A stretch of 63,709 bases of DNA, counting the filler. It is 5 parts of 5 records of this genome, joined end to end, with 100 filler letters (N's around TTAATTAATTAA, not from the genome) between each part and the next. Parts side by side here need not be neighbours in the genome. Positions count along the whole stretch, not along the records: positions 53,068 to 63,709 come from SRR31156797_2244; 4 more parts are not named here. The stretch is one strand, 5' to 3'. Below the pieces are notes generated by a model. It did no database searches. It saw only the letters and a program-made list of their open reading frames with translations, and was not told where the DNA came from. A program made the translations under genes and the position numbers. Shown piece after piece: positions 15,958 through 63,709 of the stretch (positions are counted from its first letter, which is position 1; the number at the start of each line of letters is the position of its first letter).

Positions 15958-16057
15958 NNNNNNNNNNNNNNNNNNNNNNNNNNNNNNNNNNNNNNNNNNN
16001 NTTAATTAATTAANNNNNNNNNNNNNNNNNNNNNNNNNNNNNNNNNNNNNNNNNNNN
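15958..16057. other. Artificial contig linker
   Basis: N44-TTAATTAATTAA-N44, which puts stops in all six frames. Confidence 0.99.
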
Positions 16058-34264: not shown

Positions 34265-34364
34265 NNNNNNNNNNNNNNNNNNNNNNNNNNNNNNNNNNNN
34301 NNNNNNNNTTAATTAATTAANNNNNNNNNNNNNNNNNNNNNNNNNNNNNNNNNNNNNNNNNNNN
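34265..34364. other. Artificial contig linker
   Basis: N44-TTAATTAATTAA-N44. Confidence 0.99.
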
Positions 34365-43091: not shown

Positions 43092-43191
43092 NNNNNNNNN
43101 NNNNNNNNNNNNNNNNNNNNNNNNNNNNNNNNNNNTTAATTAATTAANNNNNNNNNNNNNNNNNNNNNNNNNNNNNNNNNNNNNNNNNNNN
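43092..43191. other. Artificial contig linker
   Basis: N44-TTAATTAATTAA-N44. Confidence 0.99.
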
Positions 43192-52967: not shown

Positions 52968-53067
52968 NNNNNNNNNNNNNNNNNNNNNNNNNNNNNNNNN
53001 NNNNNNNNNNNTTAATTAATTAANNNNNNNNNNNNNNNNNNNNNNNNNNNNNNNNNNNNNNNNNNNN
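52968..53067. other. Artificial contig linker
   Basis: N44-TTAATTAATTAA-N44. Confidence 0.99.
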
Positions 53068-54911
53068 TTTGCAGTTGTTCTTGAAGCTTTAGTATTATAT
53101 TTTTCACCAAATGCATCTTTTGCTTCAAAGTTTGCTACTCCAAAACTTAAATTAAATTTATCAGTTACTTTTCCGTTTACATCAAACTCAAAACCTTTAC
53201 TTGTAACCCCTTCAGCTTCTACACTTGCAACAGTAGTAGTCCCAGGAACAAAAACACCACTTGGATCATCTGCGGCAACATTGTCTTGCTCTATTCTAAA
53301 AATAGATAAAGAAGTAGTTAATTTACCATCAAAGTATTCACCTTTAATACCTGCTTCATAAGACTTACCTTCGATTGGATTTAAATAATTTCCACTACTA
53401 TCTTTGTCACTTTGAGGTTGGAAAATACTCGTATAACTAGTATAAATAGAATGGTTTTCATCTAAATCATAAACTAGCCCTACATATGGTGTAACTTCAT
53501 TATCAAATTTTCTTGACTCTGTTGAAGAGTTAGAGCTTGTATATTCCCAAGAGTTCAGTCTTGCACCTGCAATAAGTTTTAAATCTTGAGTAAGATTAAA
53601 TTTACTTGATAAATAAATTGCTTTTTGCACAATTTGTTCTGGTTTTACAATATAGTCTATATCAGATGATGTAGAAGTTGGTGATGAAATATCATAATTG
53701 TAAAAACTTGAAAGTGATGTGTAGTATCCATCAGGATATACACCATCATATGCTGTAGTTTTATTTACATTATATGCTGCTCCAACAACAATTTGTTGTG
53801 ATAAACCACCTATTTCAAATGGAATGTCAAAATTTACATCAAGGTTATCTTGAACCTTTTTAGTTTCTGCAATCCAATCCATATAACTGATTCCACTACC
53901 AGTTGATTTATCAATTGTTCCAGCAAAATACAATAGTGCTGTATCTGTATCAATTAAATCGTGTGAATAAGCTGCATTAAACTTAATACCTTCATATACA
54001 TCTTGTTGTAAATTAGCAAAAACTGATGTGATTTCACTATTCCAATATGTCCAGTCCTCAGAAACTGTTTTAGATCTACTGAAGTGTGTTCTTGAACCAT
54101 CTGAATAAAATGCTGGTAGTCCACCCCATCTAATACCATCTCTTTCAAGTTTTTGATATGAAACACCTGCTGATAAATAAGTAGTATCAGTAAGATCTGC
54201 ATCTACTACACCGTAGAATACATTATTTTCTCTTTCATAATTATCCATATATGAATCATTACTTTCGTGTTTTAAAACAACTCTACCTCTTACGCTACCA
54301 CTTTCATTAAGTTTTGAAGATAAATCAGTTTCAAAACTATAAGAGTTCCATGATCCAACAGATACAGATGCATCTCCTTTAAACTCTTTGCTATTTGCTC
54401 TTTTTCTTACAAGGTTAATACTCATACTTGGATTTCCTGAACCAGTAGTTAATCCATTTGCACCTCTTACAATTTCAACTTTTTCATAAATTGAAAGGTC
54501 TAAATCTCTTTCATTATATTCATTATAAGTTGGCATTCCATCAATCTTATAATAATCAATACTAAAACCTCTAGCTTTAGCTTGAACTCTCTCATCCCAT
54601 CTATCTAGTGTAACACCTGTCACATGACTTAATAACTCTTGATACGAAGTTACACCTAAATCACTAAGTTTTTGTACAGTAAAAACACTTACTGATTGTG
54701 GTGTATCTCTAATAGATAAATCTAACTTTGTAGATGTATTCATTGAACCTACTGTATATGTATCCATTTCTTCATTTGTTGTTGAAACAACCTCAACAGA
54801 TTTTAATTCATTTACATTTTTTTCATTTTTAACTTCATCAGCTAATACTTCAAAGTGAAGTAATGAAGCAACTAATATTGACAACTTAAAAGCTTTTTTG
54901 CTTAAACTCAT
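53068..54911 (-). CDS. TonB-dependent siderophore receptor (FhuE/FpvA-like), 3' truncated
   Basis: TKLDLSIRDTPQSVSV, ARGF, VEIVRGANGL..GSG.PS, WGGLP and PY.GLVYD motifs. Confidence 0.92.
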
Positions 54912-54922
54912 TTATTCTCCTT

Positions 54923-54943
54923 TTATGATATCAATTATCATAA
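54923..54943. promoter_or_regulatory. Fur box 1
   Basis: TTATGATATCAATTATCATAA palindrome upstream of the receptor gene. Confidence 0.8.
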
Positions 54944-55040
54944 TTGTAATTATCAGTGCGAATTATTTCCTCTTATCTCTTAATAGAAAATTACATAATT
55001 TACCTACATGACAAGCAGAGAAAATTGATATACAATTAGT

Positions 55041-55061
55041 TTATGATAACAATTATCATAA
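55041..55061. promoter_or_regulatory. Fur box 2 (tandem duplicated promoter)
   Basis: TTATGATAACAATTATCATAA. Confidence 0.8.
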
Positions 55062-55196
55062 TCTTAATCGACGAATTATTTCTTAATTTTGCTTAAATTT
55101 ACTTTTGATTTTAGACTCTCATGACAAGTAAAAATAATTTTTTTATAAAAAACTTATGCCACATTTTTTGCACATTTTTTTCTAATAACATACAAT

Positions 55197-55826
55197 ATGT
55201 CAAAATTAGATTTACTATATAACCATATTAAAAATACAAAGCTTGATATAAAAACGCTGATTGCTATATCTAATTGTTTTGTTGAAGATTTAAATGCAAG
55301 TCAAACAGCCTATAAAACTGGGCTTAGTCGACAAACTATAAATAGCTATTATAAGCTAATAAGAGAATACTTAATTAGCCAAGAAAACATGTCAATAAAT
55401 ATCTGTTTAGATAAAAGATTACTACAAAGTGATTGTATTACATTAAAATATATTGACTTTAGAAATTCTCCTATATATTTTCTTGAAATAGATAAAAAAA
55501 TAATTTTAATCGATGAAAACAATTATCTTTTTTCTAAGATAAGCTGCTATTTGAAAAATGAATTAAAAAACTCTCTTATAAATCACAAAAGAGCAAACTC
55601 TGCAAGAATTTTACACAATACACATGAAAACAAATATTTCACAGTAAGCTTTTTAAAATCTAATGATGAAGTGAATAACTTTGTAAATAATAGATTAAAA
55701 AAATTTAGAGGAATAAACAAAAACAATTATCTTATTCATATACAAGAATCGATAATAAGGTTTAATAATGATAAGACAACATTAAAAAGAAACTTACTTA
55801 ACTTTTTTGATAACTCTATTAGATAA
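55197..55826 (+). CDS. IS1595/IS1016 transposase-derived protein lacking the DDE catalytic motifs; putative DNA-binding regulator
   Basis: N-terminal CFVEDLNASQTA...GLSRQTINSYYKLIR HTH and C-terminal RLKKFRGI.K..Y..H..E...RFN match IS1016-group ends. The central DESYFGG, GKRGRGA, TD and NGIE motifs are absent. Confidence 0.65.
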   Translation: MSKLDLLYNHIKNTKLDIKTLIAISNCFVEDLNASQTAYKTGLSRQTINSYYKLIREYLISQENMSINICLDKRLLQSDCITLKYIDFRNSPIYFLEIDKKIILIDENNYLFSKISCYLKNELKNSLINHKRANSARILHNTHENKYFTVSFLKSNDEVNNFVNNRLKKFRGINKNNYLIHIQESIIRFNNDKTTLKRNLLNFFDNSIR

Positions 55827-55883: not shown

Positions 55884-56858
55884 ATGAGCACAAAACAAGA
55901 TATAAACTACTATGAACTAATCGATGTAATAGAAAAAAAACAAAAACCATTTAATCGTGAAACCTTAATAGGAAGTGCAAAAAAAAACTTAGGTGACGGT
56001 TTTTTTATTTGGCATGATTTAGGAAATGGAATAGCAACATCAACTTGTAACTATAAACTATACCAAGATAGTTCAATCTCACTTAACTCAAATATATCTG
56101 GGGCAGTTCTTATTTTCAATCTAGGGAAAGATATTCTTTATACTTTTAAAGACAAGAAAGAATTTTTGCTAAAAAAGAACCAATTTTTTGTTGGTTTTTC
56201 TTCAGATGATTTTTTTGTGCAGATGCATTTGCAAAAAAACACTTATTATAATACATTAACCATAGGTATAAAAGAAGAATTACTTTTAAGTTTAACAAAC
56301 TACATGGATGAACTAAAAGAAAAGATGAAAGAAGCAAAAGAAAACAACTATTCAATTTTGGAAGGTGCACAAATTGACCCTGACCAATTAGAATTATTAA
56401 CAACTTTCACAGAAAAAGAAATGGACCAAAATCTTTTATCTGAATTATATTTAGAATCAAAAACAACAAATCTAATCCATTACACAATAAAAAAGATAGA
56501 AAAAATCATAGAAAGAAACTCTAGTATTGATACTAAAAAAATTGATTCTCTTGAAAGAGCCAAACAGATTATCTTAACTCAATATGCATCACCTTTATCA
56601 ATAAAAGATATTGCTTATAAATCAGCTATAAATGATTGTTACTTAAAAAAAGATTTCAAGGCTTATTATGGGATGACAATCCATGAGATGCTCCAAAAGC
56701 ATAGATTAAATGTAGCAAGAGATTTACTAAAAGAAAACCTAAGTGTTAAAGAGGTTGCTTTAAAGGTTGGATATAAACATGTTGGTAACTTTAGTAAAAT
56801 ATTTACAAATCAATTTGGAGTAAGTCCAAGTACCTACAAAAAAAACCAAAGCTTATAA
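55884..56858 (+). CDS. AraC family regulator (PchR/YbtA-like)
   Basis: LYLESK and C-terminal IN.CYLKKDFK..YG.T...VGY.HVGNFS..F...FGVSP motifs. Confidence 0.9.
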   Translation: MSTKQDINYYELIDVIEKKQKPFNRETLIGSAKKNLGDGFFIWHDLGNGIATSTCNYKLYQDSSISLNSNISGAVLIFNLGKDILYTFKDKKEFLLKKNQFFVGFSSDDFFVQMHLQKNTYYNTLTIGIKEELLLSLTNYMDELKEKMKEAKENNYSILEGAQIDPDQLELLTTFTEKEMDQNLLSELYLESKTTNLIHYTIKKIEKIIERNSSIDTKKIDSLERAKQIILTQYASPLSIKDIAYKSAINDCYLKKDFKAYYGMTIHEMLQKHRLNVARDLLKENLSVKEVALKVGYKHVGNFSKIFTNQFGVSPSTYKKNQSL

Positions 56859-56859
56859 T

Positions 56860-56935
56860 TTCCATATTTTAGATAATTAATTCCCATTTTTGTATTTACA
56901 ATATTGATAATAAGTATCAATATTTGATAGTATTC
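56860..56935 (+). promoter_or_regulatory. Fur- and probably AraC-controlled promoter, copy A
   Basis: TTCC..TTTT direct repeats 21 bp apart (56860, 56881), then TATTGATAATAAGTATCAATA (56902-56922). Confidence 0.75.
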
Positions 56936-56964
56936 CAAAAATCACACACGGGAGAATATTTATA

Positions 56965-59058
56965 ATGAGTAAAATTCATTTTAAAAAACATATGTCTATA
57001 GCTGTATCTGCATTACTTTTCAGCACTTTTCTAGTTGCAGATGAAACAAAACAAAAAACTACAAAACTTGACTCAGTTACAATTGTTGACCAAGCAAATT
57101 CTGATTATCAACCTGTAGGAAAAATATCTACAAATAGAGCAAATATTGATATTGAAGATGTTCCTAAATCTGTTCAAGTATTTAATGAAGACTTCTTATA
57201 TGACTATCAACCTCAATCATTAACAGATGTTGTTACAATGTCATCAAATGTAACTTATGGAGGGCATAACCACGGAAGAGCAAACAATTATCTAATGAGA
57301 GGTTTTTCAAACACTCCAATATTAAGAGATGGATTTAATATCACAAATGCAATAACTAATACAGAGATGTTTAACCTTGAAAGAATAGAAGTACTAAAAG
57401 GTCCAGATTCTTTACAATATGGGGAAGCAAGTCCTGGTGGAATTATTAACTTAGTTAAGAAAAAACCTAAAAAAGAAAATCATGCACAAATTGAGTTTGA
57501 AACAACAACAAATCCATCTTTTAAACCTAAAGTTGATGTTGGAGGTTCTATAAATGAAGATGGTTCTTTAAGATATAGATTAGTAACAACTTATAATCAT
57601 AAAGAACAACCAAATGATTTCAATGTAGATACTGAAACTATATTTATTGCTCCAACAATTGCCTATGATATAAATGATAACAATACTGTGACATTTATGA
57701 CTGAGTATTTAGATGAAACAAGTCCAGCAGATTTTGGAACTTTTGTAGGAAGTGATGGTGAAGCTTTGACTGACAGAGATACAGTAACAACACATCCTGA
57801 TGCAGAGTATGAAAAAGTTCAGAAAATAATAGGTCTTGATTTAGATAGTACATTTGATTCTTGGAATTCAAACTTTAGATATAGATATGTAGATCTTCAA
57901 AGAGATAATGACTCAGTTTACAGTCCTTATGTATTGGGAAGTATTATAAGAAGAAACTTTTCAACGCAAACATTTGATTCTGATGAACATGCTGCACAAT
58001 ATACTATAAATAAAGAGTTTTCTCTTGCTGGATTTAAAAATAAATTAAGCCTTGGATTTGATGCAAAAAGAGCACACTCTACAAATTATGGGTATTATGA
58101 TACAAGTGTTAACTATGATTTAGACCCTACTAATGTAAATTATGGAGACAACTCATATCTTTCAGATCACCCTAGTGCATATAAATATACAGATACAGAT
58201 TCTGTAATGAAAACTTACGGTGGATTTATTCAAGACCACATTGATTTAAATGAAGATTTAATTTTAAGTCTAGGACTTAGATACCAAAAAGTAAAGTCTG
58301 AAAGTACAAACAACTTAACTTCAACAACAAATGTATATACAAAAAGTGCAACAACTCCTCAGTTTGGATTAGTTTACAAGTTATCAACTCAAACCACATT
58401 ATACGCAAACTATTCGGAATCTTTCAATCCTCAAGATACTAAATATGTAGATGCTTCTGGAAATTTGTTAGATCCTGAAGAGGGGAAAGGTTTTGAGTTA
58501 GGAGTTAAACAAAAATTATTCAATGATAGATTCTCTCTTACTGCTGCAATATTTAGTATAGAGAAAGAAAATGTAGCAAAACAAGATCCAGCATCATCTA
58601 GACCAAATATCTTTTATACTACTAGTGAAAAAGTAAAAAGTAAAGGTTTCGAACTTGACTTAGCAGGACAAATCACAGACAACTGGTCACTTATGGCTTC
58701 TTATGGATATAGTGATACAGAAGATTTAGAAAATGATGGTAATCAACTAACTGGTGTTGCAAAACACACTGCAAATATTTTCACAACTTATGACTTATCA
58801 TCTTTTGGTTTAAATAATATGTATATTGGTGGTGGAGCAAGATATATAGGTGATAGATATGCAGATGATGCAAATAGTATAAAAATCGATTCTGACATAA
58901 TCTATAACGCAACATTTGGATATAAAAAAGGCAATTGGAGAGCAAACTTAAGTGTTAAAAACTTAACAGATGAAGAATATATTGAAACTGCAGCCTCAAC
59001 AAATGCAACTTATGGACAAAGAAGAACAGCAATACTTACAGTTAGCTATTCATTTTAA
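56965..59058 (+). CDS. TonB-dependent siderophore receptor
   Basis: Signal peptide, VPKSVQV, MRGF, ERIEVLKGP.S..YG..SPGG.IN, NLTD..Y and C-terminal Phe. Confidence 0.93.
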   Translation: MSKIHFKKHMSIAVSALLFSTFLVADETKQKTTKLDSVTIVDQANSDYQPVGKISTNRANIDIEDVPKSVQVFNEDFLYDYQPQSLTDVVTMSSNVTYGGHNHGRANNYLMRGFSNTPILRDGFNITNAITNTEMFNLERIEVLKGPDSLQYGEASPGGIINLVKKKPKKENHAQIEFETTTNPSFKPKVDVGGSINEDGSLRYRLVTTYNHKEQPNDFNVDTETIFIAPTIAYDINDNNTVTFMTEYLDETSPADFGTFVGSDGEALTDRDTVTTHPDAEYEKVQKIIGLDLDSTFDSWNSNFRYRYVDLQRDNDSVYSPYVLGSIIRRNFSTQTFDSDEHAAQYTINKEFSLAGFKNKLSLGFDAKRAHSTNYGYYDTSVNYDLDPTNVNYGDNSYLSDHPSAYKYTDTDSVMKTYGGFIQDHIDLNEDLILSLGLRYQKVKSESTNNLTSTTNVYTKSATTPQFGLVYKLSTQTTLYANYSESFNPQDTKYVDASGNLLDPEEGKGFELGVKQKLFNDRFSLTAAIFSIEKENVAKQDPASSRPNIFYTTSEKVKSKGFELDLAGQITDNWSLMASYGYSDTEDLENDGNQLTGVAKHTANIFTTYDLSSFGLNNMYIGGGARYIGDRYADDANSIKIDSDIIYNATFGYKKGNWRANLSVKNLTDEEYIETAASTNATYGQRRTAILTVSYSF

Positions 59059-59063
59059 TATAT

Positions 59064-59100
59064 AGTGGAGCTAAGATATTAAATACTTAGTTCCACTTTA
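59064..59100 (+). terminator. Terminator hairpin after the receptor gene
   Basis: AGTGGAGCTAAG/CTTAGTTCCACT stem followed by a T-rich tail. Confidence 0.65.
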
Positions 59101-59119
59101 TTTTCCAATACTTTTTTCT

Positions 59120-59195
59120 TTCCTCTTTTTAGATTATTTTTTCCCTATTTTGACTTAAACTTATTGATAATAAGTATCAATATTTGCTAATATTC
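59120..59195 (+). promoter_or_regulatory. Fur- and probably AraC-controlled promoter, copy B
   Basis: Same architecture as copy A at a constant offset of 2260 bp; identical Fur box at 59162-59182. Confidence 0.75.
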
Positions 59196-59287
59196 ATAAA
59201 ATTTTTTTGTGGAGAAAATCATGAATAACAAACAATTAAAAAAACTATTATCGAGTTTCAACTCTGATTATAAAAAAGTAAAAACTT

Positions 59288-59587
59288 ATGAATAAATTTT
59301 TTCTTTATCTAAGTACACCTGAAAAAAATGGTAAAAAAATAGGACTTTTTAGAACTTTAACAGCAATATTTGGAGGTCTTATCGCTTCTTATTTAGGAAT
59401 GACTCTACTTGCTTTTGTATTACCAATGCCAGTACAAGAATCGGCGATTGTCTCGATTATGCTTAATACTACAGCTTGGGCAATAATGGCAACTTGGATA
59501 GTACTTTCATATACTAAACTTAGTGCACTATTAAAATTTTTAATTCCAACTATTCTATTTTCTGTTGCACTTTATATATTCGCTTAA
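59288..59587 (+). CDS. Small iron-regulated membrane protein (DUF3649-like)
   Basis: Three TM helices, R.LTAIFGG motif, directly upstream of a PepSY-TM gene. Confidence 0.65.
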   Translation: MNKFFLYLSTPEKNGKKIGLFRTLTAIFGGLIASYLGMTLLAFVLPMPVQESAIVSIMLNTTAWAIMATWIVLSYTKLSALLKFLIPTILFSVALYIFA

Positions 59588-59596
59588 AGGTTATTT

Positions 59597-61180
59597 ATGA
59601 AAGAATCAAAATCAAAACTATTTAAACACAGATTATTTAGAGCTCATGTTGCAGCAGGAATAACCTTCTCTTTAGTTATGTATATTTCAATTTTTTTTGG
59701 TGTATTTGCTATTTTTTTACCATATTTAAAAACATGGGAAAAACCCTCTAGACATATTGAAAAAATAGAAATGACAAAAATAGACTACAATTCAATGATT
59801 GAAGAGGTTTTAAAAGACCCAGATTTTCCTAAAAATGACCTTCTTGTTAATCTTCCTGGAAGATTAGGAGATCCTGCAGTTACAGTTTCACATAGATTTG
59901 TAAAACCAATTGCATTTAATCCCAAAAATGGTGAAAAAATTGAAAATGAATCAGAAAAAGTATCTTATCTTGCAGATTTTCTTAATCACTTACACTATGG
60001 ACAGCCTTTAAAACTAGTAGGGAGATTATTATTTGGATTTGTTGCAGTTGGGACACTTTCATTAATTATTACAGGTTTAATTCTAATCATAATAATGAAA
60101 TTCAAAAATCAAGGTAGAAATCAACAAGCAATCTTTTCAAAAATTCATGTTGATGTTTTCACTTGGGCTTTTTTACCGTTTTTGTTAATCACAATAAGTG
60201 GAGCTGTGATGAATGTGGGATTAATAAGTTCAGGACCAATGTCTCAAATCTTAACAGATGGAAAAGCAAAATCTATTGATGGTGTTGTTGGTACTGTATT
60301 ATTTCCTCGTGGTGAAATAGTTAAAAAAGACAATATAAAAGGTGATATGCAAGCAATAAGTGAGTTATTGATAAAAGCACAAAAAATAAATCCGGAATTA
60401 ACATTTAAACAAATAAAAATAAAAAACTGGAATGACACAAATGCTAGAGTTGAATTTCTTGGATATAACCCATATAAGCCTTTTTTCAATGGAGGAATTT
60501 TTAATACTCCATCTGTGACTTTAAATGCAAATACAGGAGAGCTTATAAAAAATAAAAAAGTGATGGATAATGTATGGCCAGTATTTTTAGCAGAGGGGCT
60601 TTTTTTCCTACACTTTTTATTTGGTATAGATATTTTTTCAAGAATATTTATTGCAATTTTAATGGCTCTTTGTGGAATAGCAATAGGCTTTGGTGTAATG
60701 TTATGGCTTGAGAAAAAAGCTAAAAAATTTGATAATAAAATTACTTTCTATCACTGGATGGGGAAACTTTCACTTGCTACTATGGTTGGAATAATTCCAG
60801 CAACTGCAGTGGCTTTTGTATTGCAATGGGGTTTGCCTTTTTCACTAGAAGATAGAGTTTTATGGCAACAAGGTGCATTTTACAATACTTGGTTATTCAC
60901 TCTATTTTGGTCTTTTTATAGAATCAATTCATATACAGCATCAAAAGAGTTTTTCTTTACTGGTGGAGTTTTATTTATTTTATCAACAGTAATTCATAAT
61001 ATTAATTCTGGGTTCAATATTTTTAGTTTAATAAATCAAAATATGACTGAAATATTTGCAGTTGATTTAACTTTATTTATATTTGGAGCATTACTAATTT
61101 ATGTTTCAATTAAACTTCCAAAAAATAGAAAAGAGGCTAAATTATTTTGGCCTACTAAACAAAAAAAGGTTCAAAAATGA
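59597..61180 (+). CDS. PepSY-associated TM helix protein (putative ferri-siderophore reductase)
   Basis: Conserved His in H..AG, LN.LHY, KIH and FLHF; WE.P and MLWLEK motifs. Confidence 0.85.
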   Translation: MKESKSKLFKHRLFRAHVAAGITFSLVMYISIFFGVFAIFLPYLKTWEKPSRHIEKIEMTKIDYNSMIEEVLKDPDFPKNDLLVNLPGRLGDPAVTVSHRFVKPIAFNPKNGEKIENESEKVSYLADFLNHLHYGQPLKLVGRLLFGFVAVGTLSLIITGLILIIIMKFKNQGRNQQAIFSKIHVDVFTWAFLPFLLITISGAVMNVGLISSGPMSQILTDGKAKSIDGVVGTVLFPRGEIVKKDNIKGDMQAISELLIKAQKINPELTFKQIKIKNWNDTNARVEFLGYNPYKPFFNGGIFNTPSVTLNANTGELIKNKKVMDNVWPVFLAEGLFFLHFLFGIDIFSRIFIAILMALCGIAIGFGVMLWLEKKAKKFDNKITFYHWMGKLSLATMVGIIPATAVAFVLQWGLPFSLEDRVLWQQGAFYNTWLFTLFWSFYRINSYTASKEFFFTGGVLFILSTVIHNINSGFNIFSLINQNMTEIFAVDLTLFIFGALLIYVSIKLPKNRKEAKLFWPTKQKKVQK

Positions 61181-61671
61181 AAAAAATAATAAATTTACTG
61201 TTACTAATTTCTTTGCCGATATCACTTCTTGCACACTCTTTAGTATTAAGTGTTTTTGATAATGAAGATGGAACTCTTACAGCTTCAGGGATGTTTAATA
61301 CAGGAGAAAGTGCAGCTGGAGCTATTGTAAAACTTGAATCAAATTCAGGAGAGATACTATATGAAAAAAGACTTCCAGATGAAGGTGAATTAACAATAAA
61401 TATACCTTCAACTCCTTATAAAGTTATTCTTGAAGGTGGACCAGGTCATGTTGCAATCAAAGATGGAATTCCCCCAAAAGGTGGATTTAAAGCAGAGTCA
61501 GTAAAAAAAGAAACAAAAAAGGTAAAAAAACCTACAAGAACAGATATGACAGTTTCAACAAGTAAAGCTGTAACTATCTCAATTGTTTTGGCATTTATAC
61601 TTTTATTTGCCACGATAATAGTAAGTATTAGAAATACTAACAAGTTGTTAACTAATTTAAATAACAAATAA
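61177..61671 (+). CDS. Exported, membrane-anchored hypothetical protein of the iron-uptake operon
   Basis: Signal peptide ending A-H, GGPGH motif, C-terminal TM helix. Confidence 0.65.
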   Translation: MKKIINLLLLISLPISLLAHSLVLSVFDNEDGTLTASGMFNTGESAAGAIVKLESNSGEILYEKRLPDEGELTINIPSTPYKVILEGGPGHVAIKDGIPPKGGFKAESVKKETKKVKKPTRTDMTVSTSKAVTISIVLAFILLFATIIVSIRNTNKLLTNLNNK

Positions 61672-61730: not shown

Positions 61731-61790
61731 CTTGTCATGAAAATAAAGAAAATAAGTTTATTTTTACTTAATATTGATTATAATTCTCAA
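61731..61790 (+). promoter_or_regulatory. Promoter of the TonB2-type energiser operon with Fur-like box and CTTGTCATG motif
   Basis: CTTGTCATG (61731-61739), then TATAAT (61779-61784) inside ATTGATTATAATTCTCAA. Confidence 0.65.
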
Positions 61791-61816: not shown

Positions 61817-62560
61817 ATGAGTCTTAAAAAAGTAATTAGCTTCGTAGTATTGATAAATACTATAGTTTTTTCAAATCCAATAGATGAATCTAGAAATGTT
61901 ATTGAAAAAACAAATGTAACCCTAAAAAATTATCAAGCAAAAATTGACAAACTTGATGAAAAACAAAAAGAGTTGTTAAGTGAGTATAAGTATGTAAATG
62001 AAGAGATAAAAAGTACAAAAAAATACAATAATCAACTTGAAGAAATAATAGCATCTCAAGAAAAAGAGATAGCTGATTTTGACCAACAGATAAAAGATAT
62101 AGAAGAAACTCAAAAAAATATCTACCCATTAATGGAAAATATGATTAAAAGTTTAAAGAAGCTAGTTGAACTTGATACTCCATTTCTTTTAGAAGAAAGA
62201 AATGAAAGAATCAGCAAACTTGAAAAGACACTTACAAGAGCTGATGTAAAAACTGCAGAAAAATTCAGAATTATATTAGAAGCTTTTAAAATAGAATATG
62301 ATTATGCAAAAAATATAGAAACATATCAAAAAACTAATGGAAATAAAACATTCAACTTCTTAAGAATTGGAAGAGTTGGATTATACAAACAATCACTAAA
62401 TCAAAAAGAGTATTTTGCGTGGGATAAAAAATCAAGAGATTGGAAAGCAATTGAAGACTCAAATCTAAAAGCAAATATTAGAAAAGGGATAAAAATAGCA
62501 AAAAAACATGACAATGTTGCTTTCTTAGAATTACCTTTTTCAGTTACTGAGGAGAAATAA
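61817..62560 (+). CDS. DUF3450 family coiled-coil protein (TonB2 system)
   Basis: PLM..M...L..LV..D.PF..EER..R, AEKFR.ILEA..IE..Y and LRIGRV motifs. Confidence 0.85.
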   Translation: MSLKKVISFVVLINTIVFSNPIDESRNVIEKTNVTLKNYQAKIDKLDEKQKELLSEYKYVNEEIKSTKKYNNQLEEIIASQEKEIADFDQQIKDIEETQKNIYPLMENMIKSLKKLVELDTPFLLEERNERISKLEKTLTRADVKTAEKFRIILEAFKIEYDYAKNIETYQKTNGNKTFNFLRIGRVGLYKQSLNQKEYFAWDKKSRDWKAIEDSNLKANIRKGIKIAKKHDNVAFLELPFSVTEEK

Positions 62561-63709
62561 TGTTTAAATATTTTATAATTTTATTATTAAGTGTAAATAC
62601 AATTTTCGCACTACAACTTGACAACCTATTAAAAGATATTAAAAAAGATGCGGCTGTTGAACTTCAAGAAGAAAGAAGCAGACTTCAAGAATTTGTAAAT
62701 AATGAAAAAGAACAAAAAAGACTTTTAGCTGAAGCAAAAAAAGTATTAGCATCAGAAAATAAAAAATCTGAAAATCTAAAATCAACTTTAGAGAAAAATG
62801 AAATTTTACTAACAGAAAAAGAAGCTGTTCTTACTGAAAAAACTGGTGATTTAGGTGAAATGTTTGGAAGTGTTAGACAAACTTCTGCTGACTTTTTAAC
62901 AAACTTTCAAAACTCATTAACTGCAGCACAAGACTTAAAAAAAGAAGAAATCTTTGAAGAATTTTCAAATTCTAAAAAACTACCTAATATTGAGCAATTA
63001 AAAGGTTTATGGCATGGAATGCTTGATGAAATTATAAAAAGTGGAAATGTTGAAAAATTTTCTGCTGATGTTATTTTAAACAATGGGGAAAAAGTAAACG
63101 AAGAAGTTACTAGAGTTGGTTTATTTTCAGCAAGAGCAGATGGAAAATATTTAAACTACTCAAATGAGATGAAATCACTAATTGAACTTGCAACTCAACC
63201 AACTTCTGTTGGAAGCAATCCGTTTAGTTCAGTTTCAAGTGACGAAAATGTATTTATTGTAGACCCTACAAGAGGAACATTGTTTCAATTATTAAATAAT
63301 CAACCAACTTTAAAACAAAGAATTCAACAAGGTGGAATTGTAGGTTATATTATTATAGCTCTTGGTGTTATTGGTTTATTATTTGCTATTTATAAAATGT
63401 TTGTTTTAAATGTATACCTTTCAAAAATAAATAAACAAATGAAAGATTTAGCTACACCAAATGAGAACAACTCATTAGGAAAAATCATTAATGTATTTAA
63501 AAAATACAAAGACTATGATATCAATGATTTAGAGATAAAAATTGCAGAAACAATTCTAAATGAAACAAATAAAGTTAAAAAAGGTCAAAGCTTTGTAAAG
63601 CTTCTTTCTGCTGTAACTCCATTACTAGGATTACTTGGAACTGTAACAGGTATGATTGCAACTTTCCAAGCAATTACACTATTTGGTACAGGTGACCCAA
63701 AACTTATGG
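62560..63709 (+). CDS. Long MotA/TolQ/ExbB family protein (TtpC-like), 3' truncated (not in ORF track)
   Basis: GGAG RBS, ATG 62560, GDLGEMFG, VDPTRG, QGGIVGY and PLLGLLGTVTGMI.TFQAITLFGTGDPKLM at the window end. Confidence 0.9.
   Translation, partial: MFKYFIILLLSVNTIFALQLDNLLKDIKKDAAVELQEERSRLQEFVNNEKEQKRLLAEAKKVLASENKKSENLKSTLEKNEILLTEKEAVLTEKTGDLGEMFGSVRQTSADFLTNFQNSLTAAQDLKKEEIFEEFSNSKKLPNIEQLKGLWHGMLDEIIKSGNVEKFSADVILNNGEKVNEEVTRVGLFSARADGKYLNYSNEMKSLIELATQPTSVGSNPFSSVSSDENVFIVDPTRGTLFQLLNNQPTLKQRIQQGGIVGYIIIALGVIGLLFAIYKMFVLNVYLSKINKQMKDLATPNENNSLGKIINVFKKYKDYDINDLEIKIAETILNETNKVKKGQSFVKLLSAVTPLLGLLGTVTGMIATFQAITLFGTGDPKLM

Follow-up and report, generated by a model that had tools for sequence, protein, structure and literature searches.

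The gene designated X209 (55197..55826, + strand) was analysed in a window of 63,709 nucleotides (nt), which is the whole stretch of DNA under study. X209 is probably a domesticated IS1016-type transposase that acts as a sequence-specific regulator of iron uptake. Its status as a domesticated, non-mobile transposase derivative is close to certain. That the protein binds DNA and reads the promoter word CTTGTCATG is very likely from the comparisons given below, and activation is somewhat favoured over repression. Control of X209 by a response regulator, together with a leaderless X209 mRNA, would place the gene in a cascade; this part is tentative and at best evenly balanced. A sequence-only reading of the same DNA had proposed exaptation as a regulator. 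This proposal was supported by syntenic single-copy orthologues, purifying selection, the lack of a catalytic triad and of terminal inverted repeats (TIRs), and the enrichment and covariation of the word. It was refined by a regulatory partner, a two-component system with Fur-type gating, and by a likely operator, [C/G/T]TTGTCATG.

X209 was confirmed as an intact open reading frame (ORF), running from ATG to stop with zero internal stops and encoding 209 amino acids (aa). The protein comprises a helix-turn-helix (HTH) at about residues 18-70 with the recognition helix S44-R45-Q46-T47, what appears to be a remodelled RNase H-like core (81-167) and conserved C-terminal helices (178-208). The two stretches quoted in the sequence-only reading as following IS1016-group patterns correspond to residues 27-56 and 162-190. 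In curated libraries, the only Pfam match was HTH_29 (E 0.24), NCBIfam gave none and PDB sequences gave none below E 1.5. No Pfam match to PF12762 (DDE_Tnp_IS1595) was obtained even at E ≤ 10, its gathering score not being reached, and no PF12762 match was found in five genomes with X209 orthologues. A word-indexed search returned 36 relatives (175-237 aa, 36-53% identity), of which 0/36 had a Pfam domain on record. When 1.84 billion representatives were searched with phmmer, 95 matches were obtained at E ≤ 1e-3. The top 22 were the X209 family; similarity in the 73 weaker ones was located in two stretches, one N-terminal and one C-terminal. Sixty-four of these 73 were aligned (nine fragments of 81-127 aa were left out) and PF12762 was recognised in 14 of the 64, with a best E of 2.8e-25. 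One of these 14, P0116, has 1965 relatives with PF12762, named IS1595 family transposase. A profile of the X209 family (A1, 37 sequences) was compared using hhalign with one built from 28 bona fide transposases of PF12762 (A3). The two were aligned end to end over 187 columns with a probability of 99.5% and E 1.4e-22. On this profile comparison, the homology of X209 to IS1595-family transposases is real.

The word CTTGTCATG, proposed as the X209 operator, occurs on the - strand at 55007..55015, 96 nt upstream of the start of a divergent TonB-dependent receptor gene (receptor A). A second copy (55120..55128, - strand) lies 77 nt before the X209 ATG, in a tandemly duplicated promoter module, and a third (61731..61739, + strand) 86 nt upstream of a DUF3450-ExbB (TonB2-type) operon. 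These three copies compare with 0.34 expected in the window; for the string CATGACAAG, likewise counted three times versus 0.34 expected, that number was reached in 0/100 shuffles. Between the word and the receptor A start lies the palindrome TTATGATAnCAATTATCATAA (54922..54950), which by the general Fur consensus would be Fur-box-like. A second such palindrome (55040..55068), 90% identical to the first, lies in the duplicated module. The element GAAATAATTC (54960..54969, - strand; second copy 55073-55082) separates the word from the palindrome and is conserved across the receptor promoters. Palindrome, GAATTATTTC and CATGACAAG together make up the receptor promoter module, of which the window has two tandem copies (54922-55015 and 55040-55128; period 113-118 nt), as against a single one in other loci.

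Nineteen exact copies of CTTGTCATG were found in 298 kb of loci plus the window. Fifteen are located upstream of receptor A, of a small-ORF/PepSY operon or of DUF3450, in gene orientation and at a distance of 77-112 nt; of the other four, one is the second module copy in the window and three are in coding sequence. Receptor promoters follow a constant order: the word, 23-24 nt, TAAG, GAAATAATTC, the Fur-box-like palindrome, an AGGA ribosome site and the ATG. In non-receptor promoters, TAAG follows the word after 12-13 nt. The word is present as a single copy per promoter and forms no direct repeat. Further sites in X209-positive genomes were located 73-77 nt before FecI/FecR-like sigma/anti-sigma operons (three genomes) and before a DUF4198 gene; three of the seven further sites inspected were chance matches.

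An even sample of 151 Arcobacteraceae species was surveyed. X209 matches at E ≤ 1e-5 were present in 43 species, 39 of them strong (E ≤ 1e-21) and four weak, to other things. The 151 genomes were scanned for the pattern CTTGTCATG-N10-26-TAAG, the reversed pattern being used as control. The 39 X209-positive genomes gave 66 matches versus 19 for the control, with at least one match in 30/39. The 112 X209-negative genomes gave 39 matches versus 46 for the control, with at least one match in 30/112. The word exceeds background only in genomes carrying X209. Many of the matches in X209-positive genomes are within 20 kb of X209.

Covariation between the recognition helix and the word was analysed in all distinct genomes where both the X209 helix and the word at the X209/receptor promoter were readable. 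In 17 genomes with the helix S-R-Q-T, the word is [C/G/T]TTGTCATG (one CTTGTCTTG) and base 4 is G in 17/17. In five genomes with S-R-V-T, it is CTTATCATG and base 4 is A in 5/5. Base 4 is also A in the single genome with S-R-P-T (G114, word TTTATCATG) and in the single genome with S-R-Y-M (G042, word TTAAACATG). In these genomes, residue 46 and base 4 are paired, Q with G (17/17) and V, P or Y with A (7/7). The V-helix genomes carry the A-form word at two or three promoters around the locus. In the sister species G143 (Q) and G114 (P), base 4 changes from G to A at the X209-adjacent promoter; their ECF (extracytoplasmic function)-sigma promoters are near-identical over 200 nt, yet the same G to A change is found at word position 4. 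At the level of sequence, no stronger argument for a direct reading of the word by X209 is available than these three independent helix changes, each with a matching word change. The link between X209 and CTTGTCATG promoters, which had been suggested as a possibility, is supported by this residue 46/base 4 covariation and by the enrichment restricted to X209-positive genomes.

The conserved neighbourhood was analysed in 21 loci (20 loci from 20 species plus the window) by ORF clustering and Pfam scans. An OmpR-type response regulator was found in 18/21 loci and a 7TMR-DISM histidine kinase in 15/21. Receptor A was also found in 15/21, divergent from X209 in 11 of these. The small-ORF/PepSY_TM operon and a DUF3450-ExbB-ExbB-ExbD-TonB-TPR cluster complete the neighbourhood. 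Kinase orthologues were counted at E ≤ 1e-137, or as contig-end fragments of at least 55% identity. They were present in 38/39 X209-positive versus 4/112 X209-negative genomes (G149, G125, G035 and G128). The X209-positive exception, G073, has a 132-aa kinase fragment beside X209. As judged from gene content, the conserved regulatory partner of X209 is the OmpR-type two-component system, not the AraC-family gene that follows X209 in the window.

In one alternative explanation, X209 is domesticated but serves the adjacent two-component system in another way, for example by partnering the response regulator or by binding the direct repeat; another protein inherited with the island would then read CTTGTCATG. 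The frequencies of the regulator beside X209 and of the kinase in X209-positive genomes count for it, and OmpR/PhoB-type regulators bind TGTCA-like direct repeats. Three genomes with a Q helix but no word near the locus also fit. However, the four X209-negative genomes that keep the kinase, the regulator and the receptor lack the word along with X209: they gave 0 pattern matches genome-wide, no exact word in the 16-17 kb around the module, and neither TTGTCAT nor TGTCATG in the 260 nt before the receptor genes. Moreover, the word changes with X209 residues 46-47 in three lineages, at several promoters per genome, and it occurs once per promoter and not as a direct repeat. This explanation was judged unlikely, though it is the best placed of the alternatives.

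A second alternative makes CTTGTCATG the -35 element of an alternative (ECF) sigma factor promoter with no connection to X209. The string TTGTCA is similar to a -35 hexamer, there is a TAAG after it at a fixed distance, and ECF sigma and FecR genes occur within the same promoter set. Several ECF sigma factors linked to TonB receptors are described in Arcobacter species (PMC3445524), which was counted in its favour; the part of that paper available gives no promoter consensus for ECF sigma factors from A. butzleri. Against it, the gap between the word and TAAG is either 12-13 nt or 23-24 nt. These differ by about one helical turn, a spacing more in keeping with an upstream activator site than with a sigma element. 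The enrichment and the covariation, in addition, track X209. We regard the sigma-element explanation as improbable. A scan for sigma-70-type promoters gave 19 sites versus 16.3 expected and was uninformative; no terminator-like site was found.

The absence of TIRs around X209, claimed from the sequence alone, was borne out. The sole bracketing pair is 24 nt long, 75% complementary and A/T-rich, and is one of 92 inverted pairs in 1.4 kb. By contrast, a perfect 15-bp TIR is seen in the control ISAcra1, an IS1016-type element of about 730 bp that was found with P0112 in 64 plasmid records; this element is nearly identical on plasmids of three Acinetobacter species. X209 is present as a single copy in the window and as a single strong match in each of 5/5 complete genomes. 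Two strong copies were seen in G049 alone, separated by 4.7 kb. There (G049:C1:551858-558882), the pair formed by X209 and the histidine kinase gene is tandemly duplicated, each X209 copy lying beside a kinase copy. Matches flagged with one TAA in G017, G055 and G071 were open frames of 192, 192 and 218 aa once cut out, and the interruption of a split match in G143 consists of masked bases. True PF12762 transposases were found in 20/151 genomes and are of the ~340-aa type, with three equal-scoring copies in G017. Across seven pairs of X209 orthologues (at least 55% identity, compared pairwise), the ratio of nonsynonymous to synonymous substitution rates (dN/dS) was 0.13-0.32; it was 0.10-0.38 in five pairs for the former catalytic region (residues 71-155). 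The checks of copy number, synteny and dN/dS thus gave single-copy, syntenic orthologues under purifying selection. X209 fails four defining features of IS1595-family transposases: it scores below the Pfam threshold, has neither triad nor TIRs, and does not occur as multiple mobile copies. It is not to be filed as a transposase.

The idea that the ORF is a decaying or inert insertion sequence (IS) remnant without function draws on the loss of catalytic residues and the lack of a curated family match. It is already contradicted by intact syntenic ORFs in 39/151 species at 36-53% identity and by the dN/dS values, and is highly improbable; a truly decayed IS1016-like copy (G033:C39:53026-53718) has six in-frame stops (one TGA, two TAG and three TAA), in contrast to the intact X209.

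The catalytic site was located by the A1 versus A3 alignment. The first aspartate (D1, ELDES) falls opposite a gap between X209 L83 and K84, and the Gly/Lys/Arg-rich GKRGRG loop of true transposases is deleted. The second (D2, YTD) falls opposite T142, in a column with 11 different residues among the 37 family sequences. The glutamate (E3, NGIENFW) falls opposite N160; this column holds E in 24, D in six and N in seven of the 37. The earlier observation that the catalytic motifs are missing therefore stands, as X209 has no DDE triad by profile alignment; most relatives are still acidic at the third position. An enzyme that is still active, as a non-canonical transposase or a site-specific recombinase, could be argued from the Glu/Asp at this position in 30/37 relatives and from the invariant E184, but is just as improbable as the inert remnant, given the lack of TIRs, one strong match per genome (the G049 tandem pair excepted), a fixed neighbourhood, a deleted D1 and a variable D2.

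An AlphaFold2 model of X209 was built on A1 (predicted local distance difference test score, pLDDT, 88.2; predicted template modelling score, pTM, 0.85). It shows a three-helix HTH, strands b1-b2-b3, helix a1, a b4-b5 two-strand hairpin and then three helices. In the model of P0116, a true transposase (pLDDT 87.3), the elements come in the same order, with two extras: a long loop after strand 1 (b1-b2) and an a2 helix between strands 4 and 5. Only two PDB structures cover most of the X209 model, the ISCth4 transposase (Z 6.2, root-mean-square deviation 3.8, 154 residues) and Hermes (Z 5.2, 125 residues); all other matches are to the HTH only, with no integrase cores. The P0116 model, in comparison, reaches Z 10-12 against retroviral integrase cores, Z 10.4 against ISCth4 (193 residues) and Z 9.6 against Hermes. 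Since the structure matches of X209 are few and weak compared with those of the true transposase model, its core appears, as modelled, to be a heavily remodelled RNase H-like domain that is weakly recognisable; the structural evidence alone would be weak.

Several observations weigh against X209 as a domesticated transposase that reads CTTGTCATG. The window holds no response regulator or kinase, its contig ending exactly where both would be expected. The Fisher test behind the association between X209 and at least one pattern match (30/39 versus 30/112, p 8.5e-8) ignores relatedness. Three related genomes with a Q helix (G002, G003 and G021; loci L006, L007 and L050) have no word near the locus and 0-1 pattern matches. 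The covariation consists of only three independent helix changes, so that phylogenetic inertia is only partly excluded, and another factor co-inherited with X209 could be the word reader. Residues S44, R45, T47 and N49 are also conserved in real transposases; helix conservation alone is therefore no proof of a host target. A Foldseek search of the X209 model against PDB gave no match at E ≤ 1e-3, and the Z of 6.2 with ISCth4 is tied with unrelated helical matches, versus the values of P0116 on integrase cores. Finally, the idea that the operator was derived from a TIR found no support in ISAcra1, whose TIR (GGCTCTAGACTAGCA) is unlike CTTGTCATG; this comparison involves one distant element only and does not exclude the idea.

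The upstream region of X209 itself was examined for signs of its control. A direct repeat, CACAT-N6-CACAT (CACATTTTTTGCACAT, 55160..55175, + strand), with an 11-nt period, begins 37 nt before the X209 ATG and is a candidate response-regulator site. A -10-like hexamer, TAATAA (55183..55188, + strand), lies 8 nt before the ATG. Among 31 distinct X209 upstream regions, an 11-nt-spaced direct repeat starting about 37-40 nt before the ATG was found in 28. An A/T-rich -10-like hexamer 5-12 nt before the ATG was found in 31/31, a loose pattern that carries little weight in A/T-rich DNA. A Shine-Dalgarno sequence (AGGA, GGAG, GAGG or AAGG) was found in the last 20 nt of 0/31 of these regions, whereas neighbouring genes have one. 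It is this lack that is informative, and the X209 mRNA may therefore be leaderless. The same repeat was found 69-143 nt upstream of the receptor operon in three of the four X209-less loci. At L024 10230, L025 6704 and L026 9975, it takes the form of an 11-nt-spaced ATGTC/ATGGC repeat before the receptor operon, beside the response regulator gene. We infer that in loci without X209 the response regulator might activate the receptor directly, whereas in those with X209 it might act through that protein.

The following course of events is proposed. An IS1016-type transposase would have kept its HTH, a remodelled RNase H-like core and its C-terminal helices while losing its catalytic residues and terminal repeats, and would then have been fixed as a single-copy chromosomal gene in part of the Arcobacteraceae. 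The recognition helix S44-R45-Q46-T47 would read the word [C/G/T]TTGTCATG about 77-112 nt before the start codons of iron-uptake operons. The predicted targets are receptor A, the small-ORF/PepSY_TM operon and the DUF3450-ExbB TonB2 cluster, and in other genomes the FecI/FecR-like sigma operons and the DUF4198 gene. Since the word lies upstream in promoters that each carry a Fur-box-like palindrome nearer the gene, activation may be gated by iron. The adjacent 7TMR-DISM kinase has an OmpR-type response regulator, which would bind the pho-box-like direct repeat at about -38 to -23 before X209. The chain would thus run from the kinase to the response regulator, to X209 and to the uptake genes.

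The locus occupies the last contig of the window. The window consists of separate contigs joined by spacers at 15958-16057, 34265-34364, 43092-43191 and 52968-53067, each made of 44 N, 12 nt and 44 N. In the last of these (52968..53067), which is the left limit of the contig carrying the locus, TTAATTAATTAA is read at 53012-53023. Gene order across spacers is therefore not real, and genes to the left of receptor A are not true neighbours. Receptor A (53068..54911, - strand), whose 3' end is lost at the contig junction, encodes Plug and barrel domains; the sequence-only reading was right in placing a TonB receptor gene divergently from X209. The AraC-family regulator gene (55884..56858, + strand) begins 57 nt after X209, and the gap between the two holds no terminator-like site. 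Its position downstream of X209, also pointed out earlier, holds in the window. As a conserved partner it was rejected: it is found in only 4/21 loci and is always followed by receptor B. This second TonB-dependent receptor gene (56965..59058, + strand) has a promoter without CTTGTCATG. Genes for a small ORF (99 aa), a PepSY_TM protein (527 aa) and a 164-aa membrane protein follow (59288..61671, + strand), in an operon that carries the word in other loci. DUF3450 and ExbB (61817..63708, + strand) start the TonB2-type cluster, which runs off the window.

The promoters of receptor B (window 56858-56965 and 59058-59288, and equivalents in L005, L006 and L007) have in common a TTTTCC-rich stretch followed by TTGATAATnAGTATCAA, a conserved arrangement, and have no CTTGTCATG. 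This layout suggests a separate AraC and Fur module. In the G073 locus (L023 7111-7509 and 12691-13439), the kinase is a fragment and DUF3450 seems split into two ORFs; this may be decay or an assembly error, the genome being metagenome-assembled.

A second IS1595-derived family was observed at L021 2986-3642 (-) and L022 2742-3392 (+). Its members are 216-218 aa long and have no recognisable DDE motifs. Their N-terminus is a CxxC...CxxC zinc ribbon (a sub-threshold match to Zn_ribbon_IS1595); they also have an HTH and a transposase C-terminus, and are aligned by hhalign to true transposases with a probability of 97.2% and E 3.7e-11. The family was found in 107/151 Arcobacteraceae species, mostly as one intact copy per genome. 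Adjacent ORFs are presumably hydrogenase-maturation genes (hypB, hypD) and a chemoreceptor gene, as judged by reading and not by a domain scan. Further proteins of 190-230 aa (P0057, P0060, P0062, P0066, P0068 and others) have kept IS1016-type termini and have no DESYFGG, YTD, NGIE or PF12762 match. The named members of this type are from Flavihumibacter (Bacteroidota) and are labelled hypothetical or transposase.

It is an evenly poised conjecture that IS1016/IS1595-type transposases were repeatedly recruited as an unrecognised class of bacterial transcription factors, X209 being one case: a relay encoded by a leaderless mRNA, placed between a two-component system and an iron-uptake regulon gated by Fur, whose HTH co-evolved with its operators. 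The X209 family is a compact and testable case, with a protein of 209 aa and a proposed operator of 9 bp. It offers natural specificity variants, in which residue 46 is Q, V, P or Y and base 4 is G or A, and natural genomes with and without X209 around the same kinase, regulator and receptor module. X209 would add an unannotated regulator to iron uptake in Arcobacteraceae. More generally, it would show that a fixed host regulator can hide behind the similarity-based label 'transposase' or 'hypothetical'.

X209 resembles the IS1016 group (IS1595; e.g. ISAcra1; PF12762) in length class (209 aa versus 225-228 aa), in the N-terminal HTH with S-R-x-T-x-N, in the C-terminal RL.KFRGI...H.KE..FR.N helices and in the order of secondary-structure elements. 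It differs from that group by having no D-D-E triad, GKRGRG loop or TIRs, and by being single-copy, syntenic, under purifying selection and below all Pfam thresholds. In the PhoB pho box, the -35 region gives way to two direct repeats with 11-nt spacing, located about 10 nt upstream of the -10 box. The X209 repeat resembles this layout and, by conserved gene order, lies next to a gene for an OmpR/PhoB-family regulator, but its unit is CACAT or GCCAT with a T-run and not CTGTCAT. PchR and YbtA, which are siderophore-responsive AraC regulators, provide a model for the likely role of the downstream AraC gene, which like theirs lies directly upstream of a TonB-dependent receptor gene (receptor B). 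With its occurrence in 4/21 loci and a promoter without the word, this AraC and receptor B pair forms a module separate from that of X209.

Conversion of transposases into transcription factors is well documented in eukaryotes. FHY3/FAR1 are eukaryotic transcription factors that arose from a DDE-type transposase and whose DNA-binding domain recognises words in host promoters; unlike them, X209 is bacterial, much smaller and, on the proposed scheme, embedded in an iron-uptake circuit with a two-component system and Fur. In the open-access literature searched, no case was found in which a DDE transposase of a bacterial insertion sequence had been recruited to regulate by reading promoters. InsA of IS1 is an IS-encoded HTH regulator that is part of the mobile element and binds the element's own ends. 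X209 would share with InsA the character of a transposase-related HTH regulator, but is a host gene with predicted host-promoter targets. Exapted bacterial transcription factors are described, in the accessible parts of the reports, among TldR proteins (TnpB-derived nuclease-dead repressors) and dCas12f (bioRxiv 10.1101/2023.11.30.569447; PMC13472631). As far as these parts describe them, X209 would be comparable: in each case, a nucleic-acid enzyme encoded by a transposon would have lost its catalytic activity and been taken over by the host as a transcription factor. Unlike these RNA-guided, RuvC-type proteins, X209 derives from a DDE transposase, would read DNA by its own HTH and would probably activate rather than repress.

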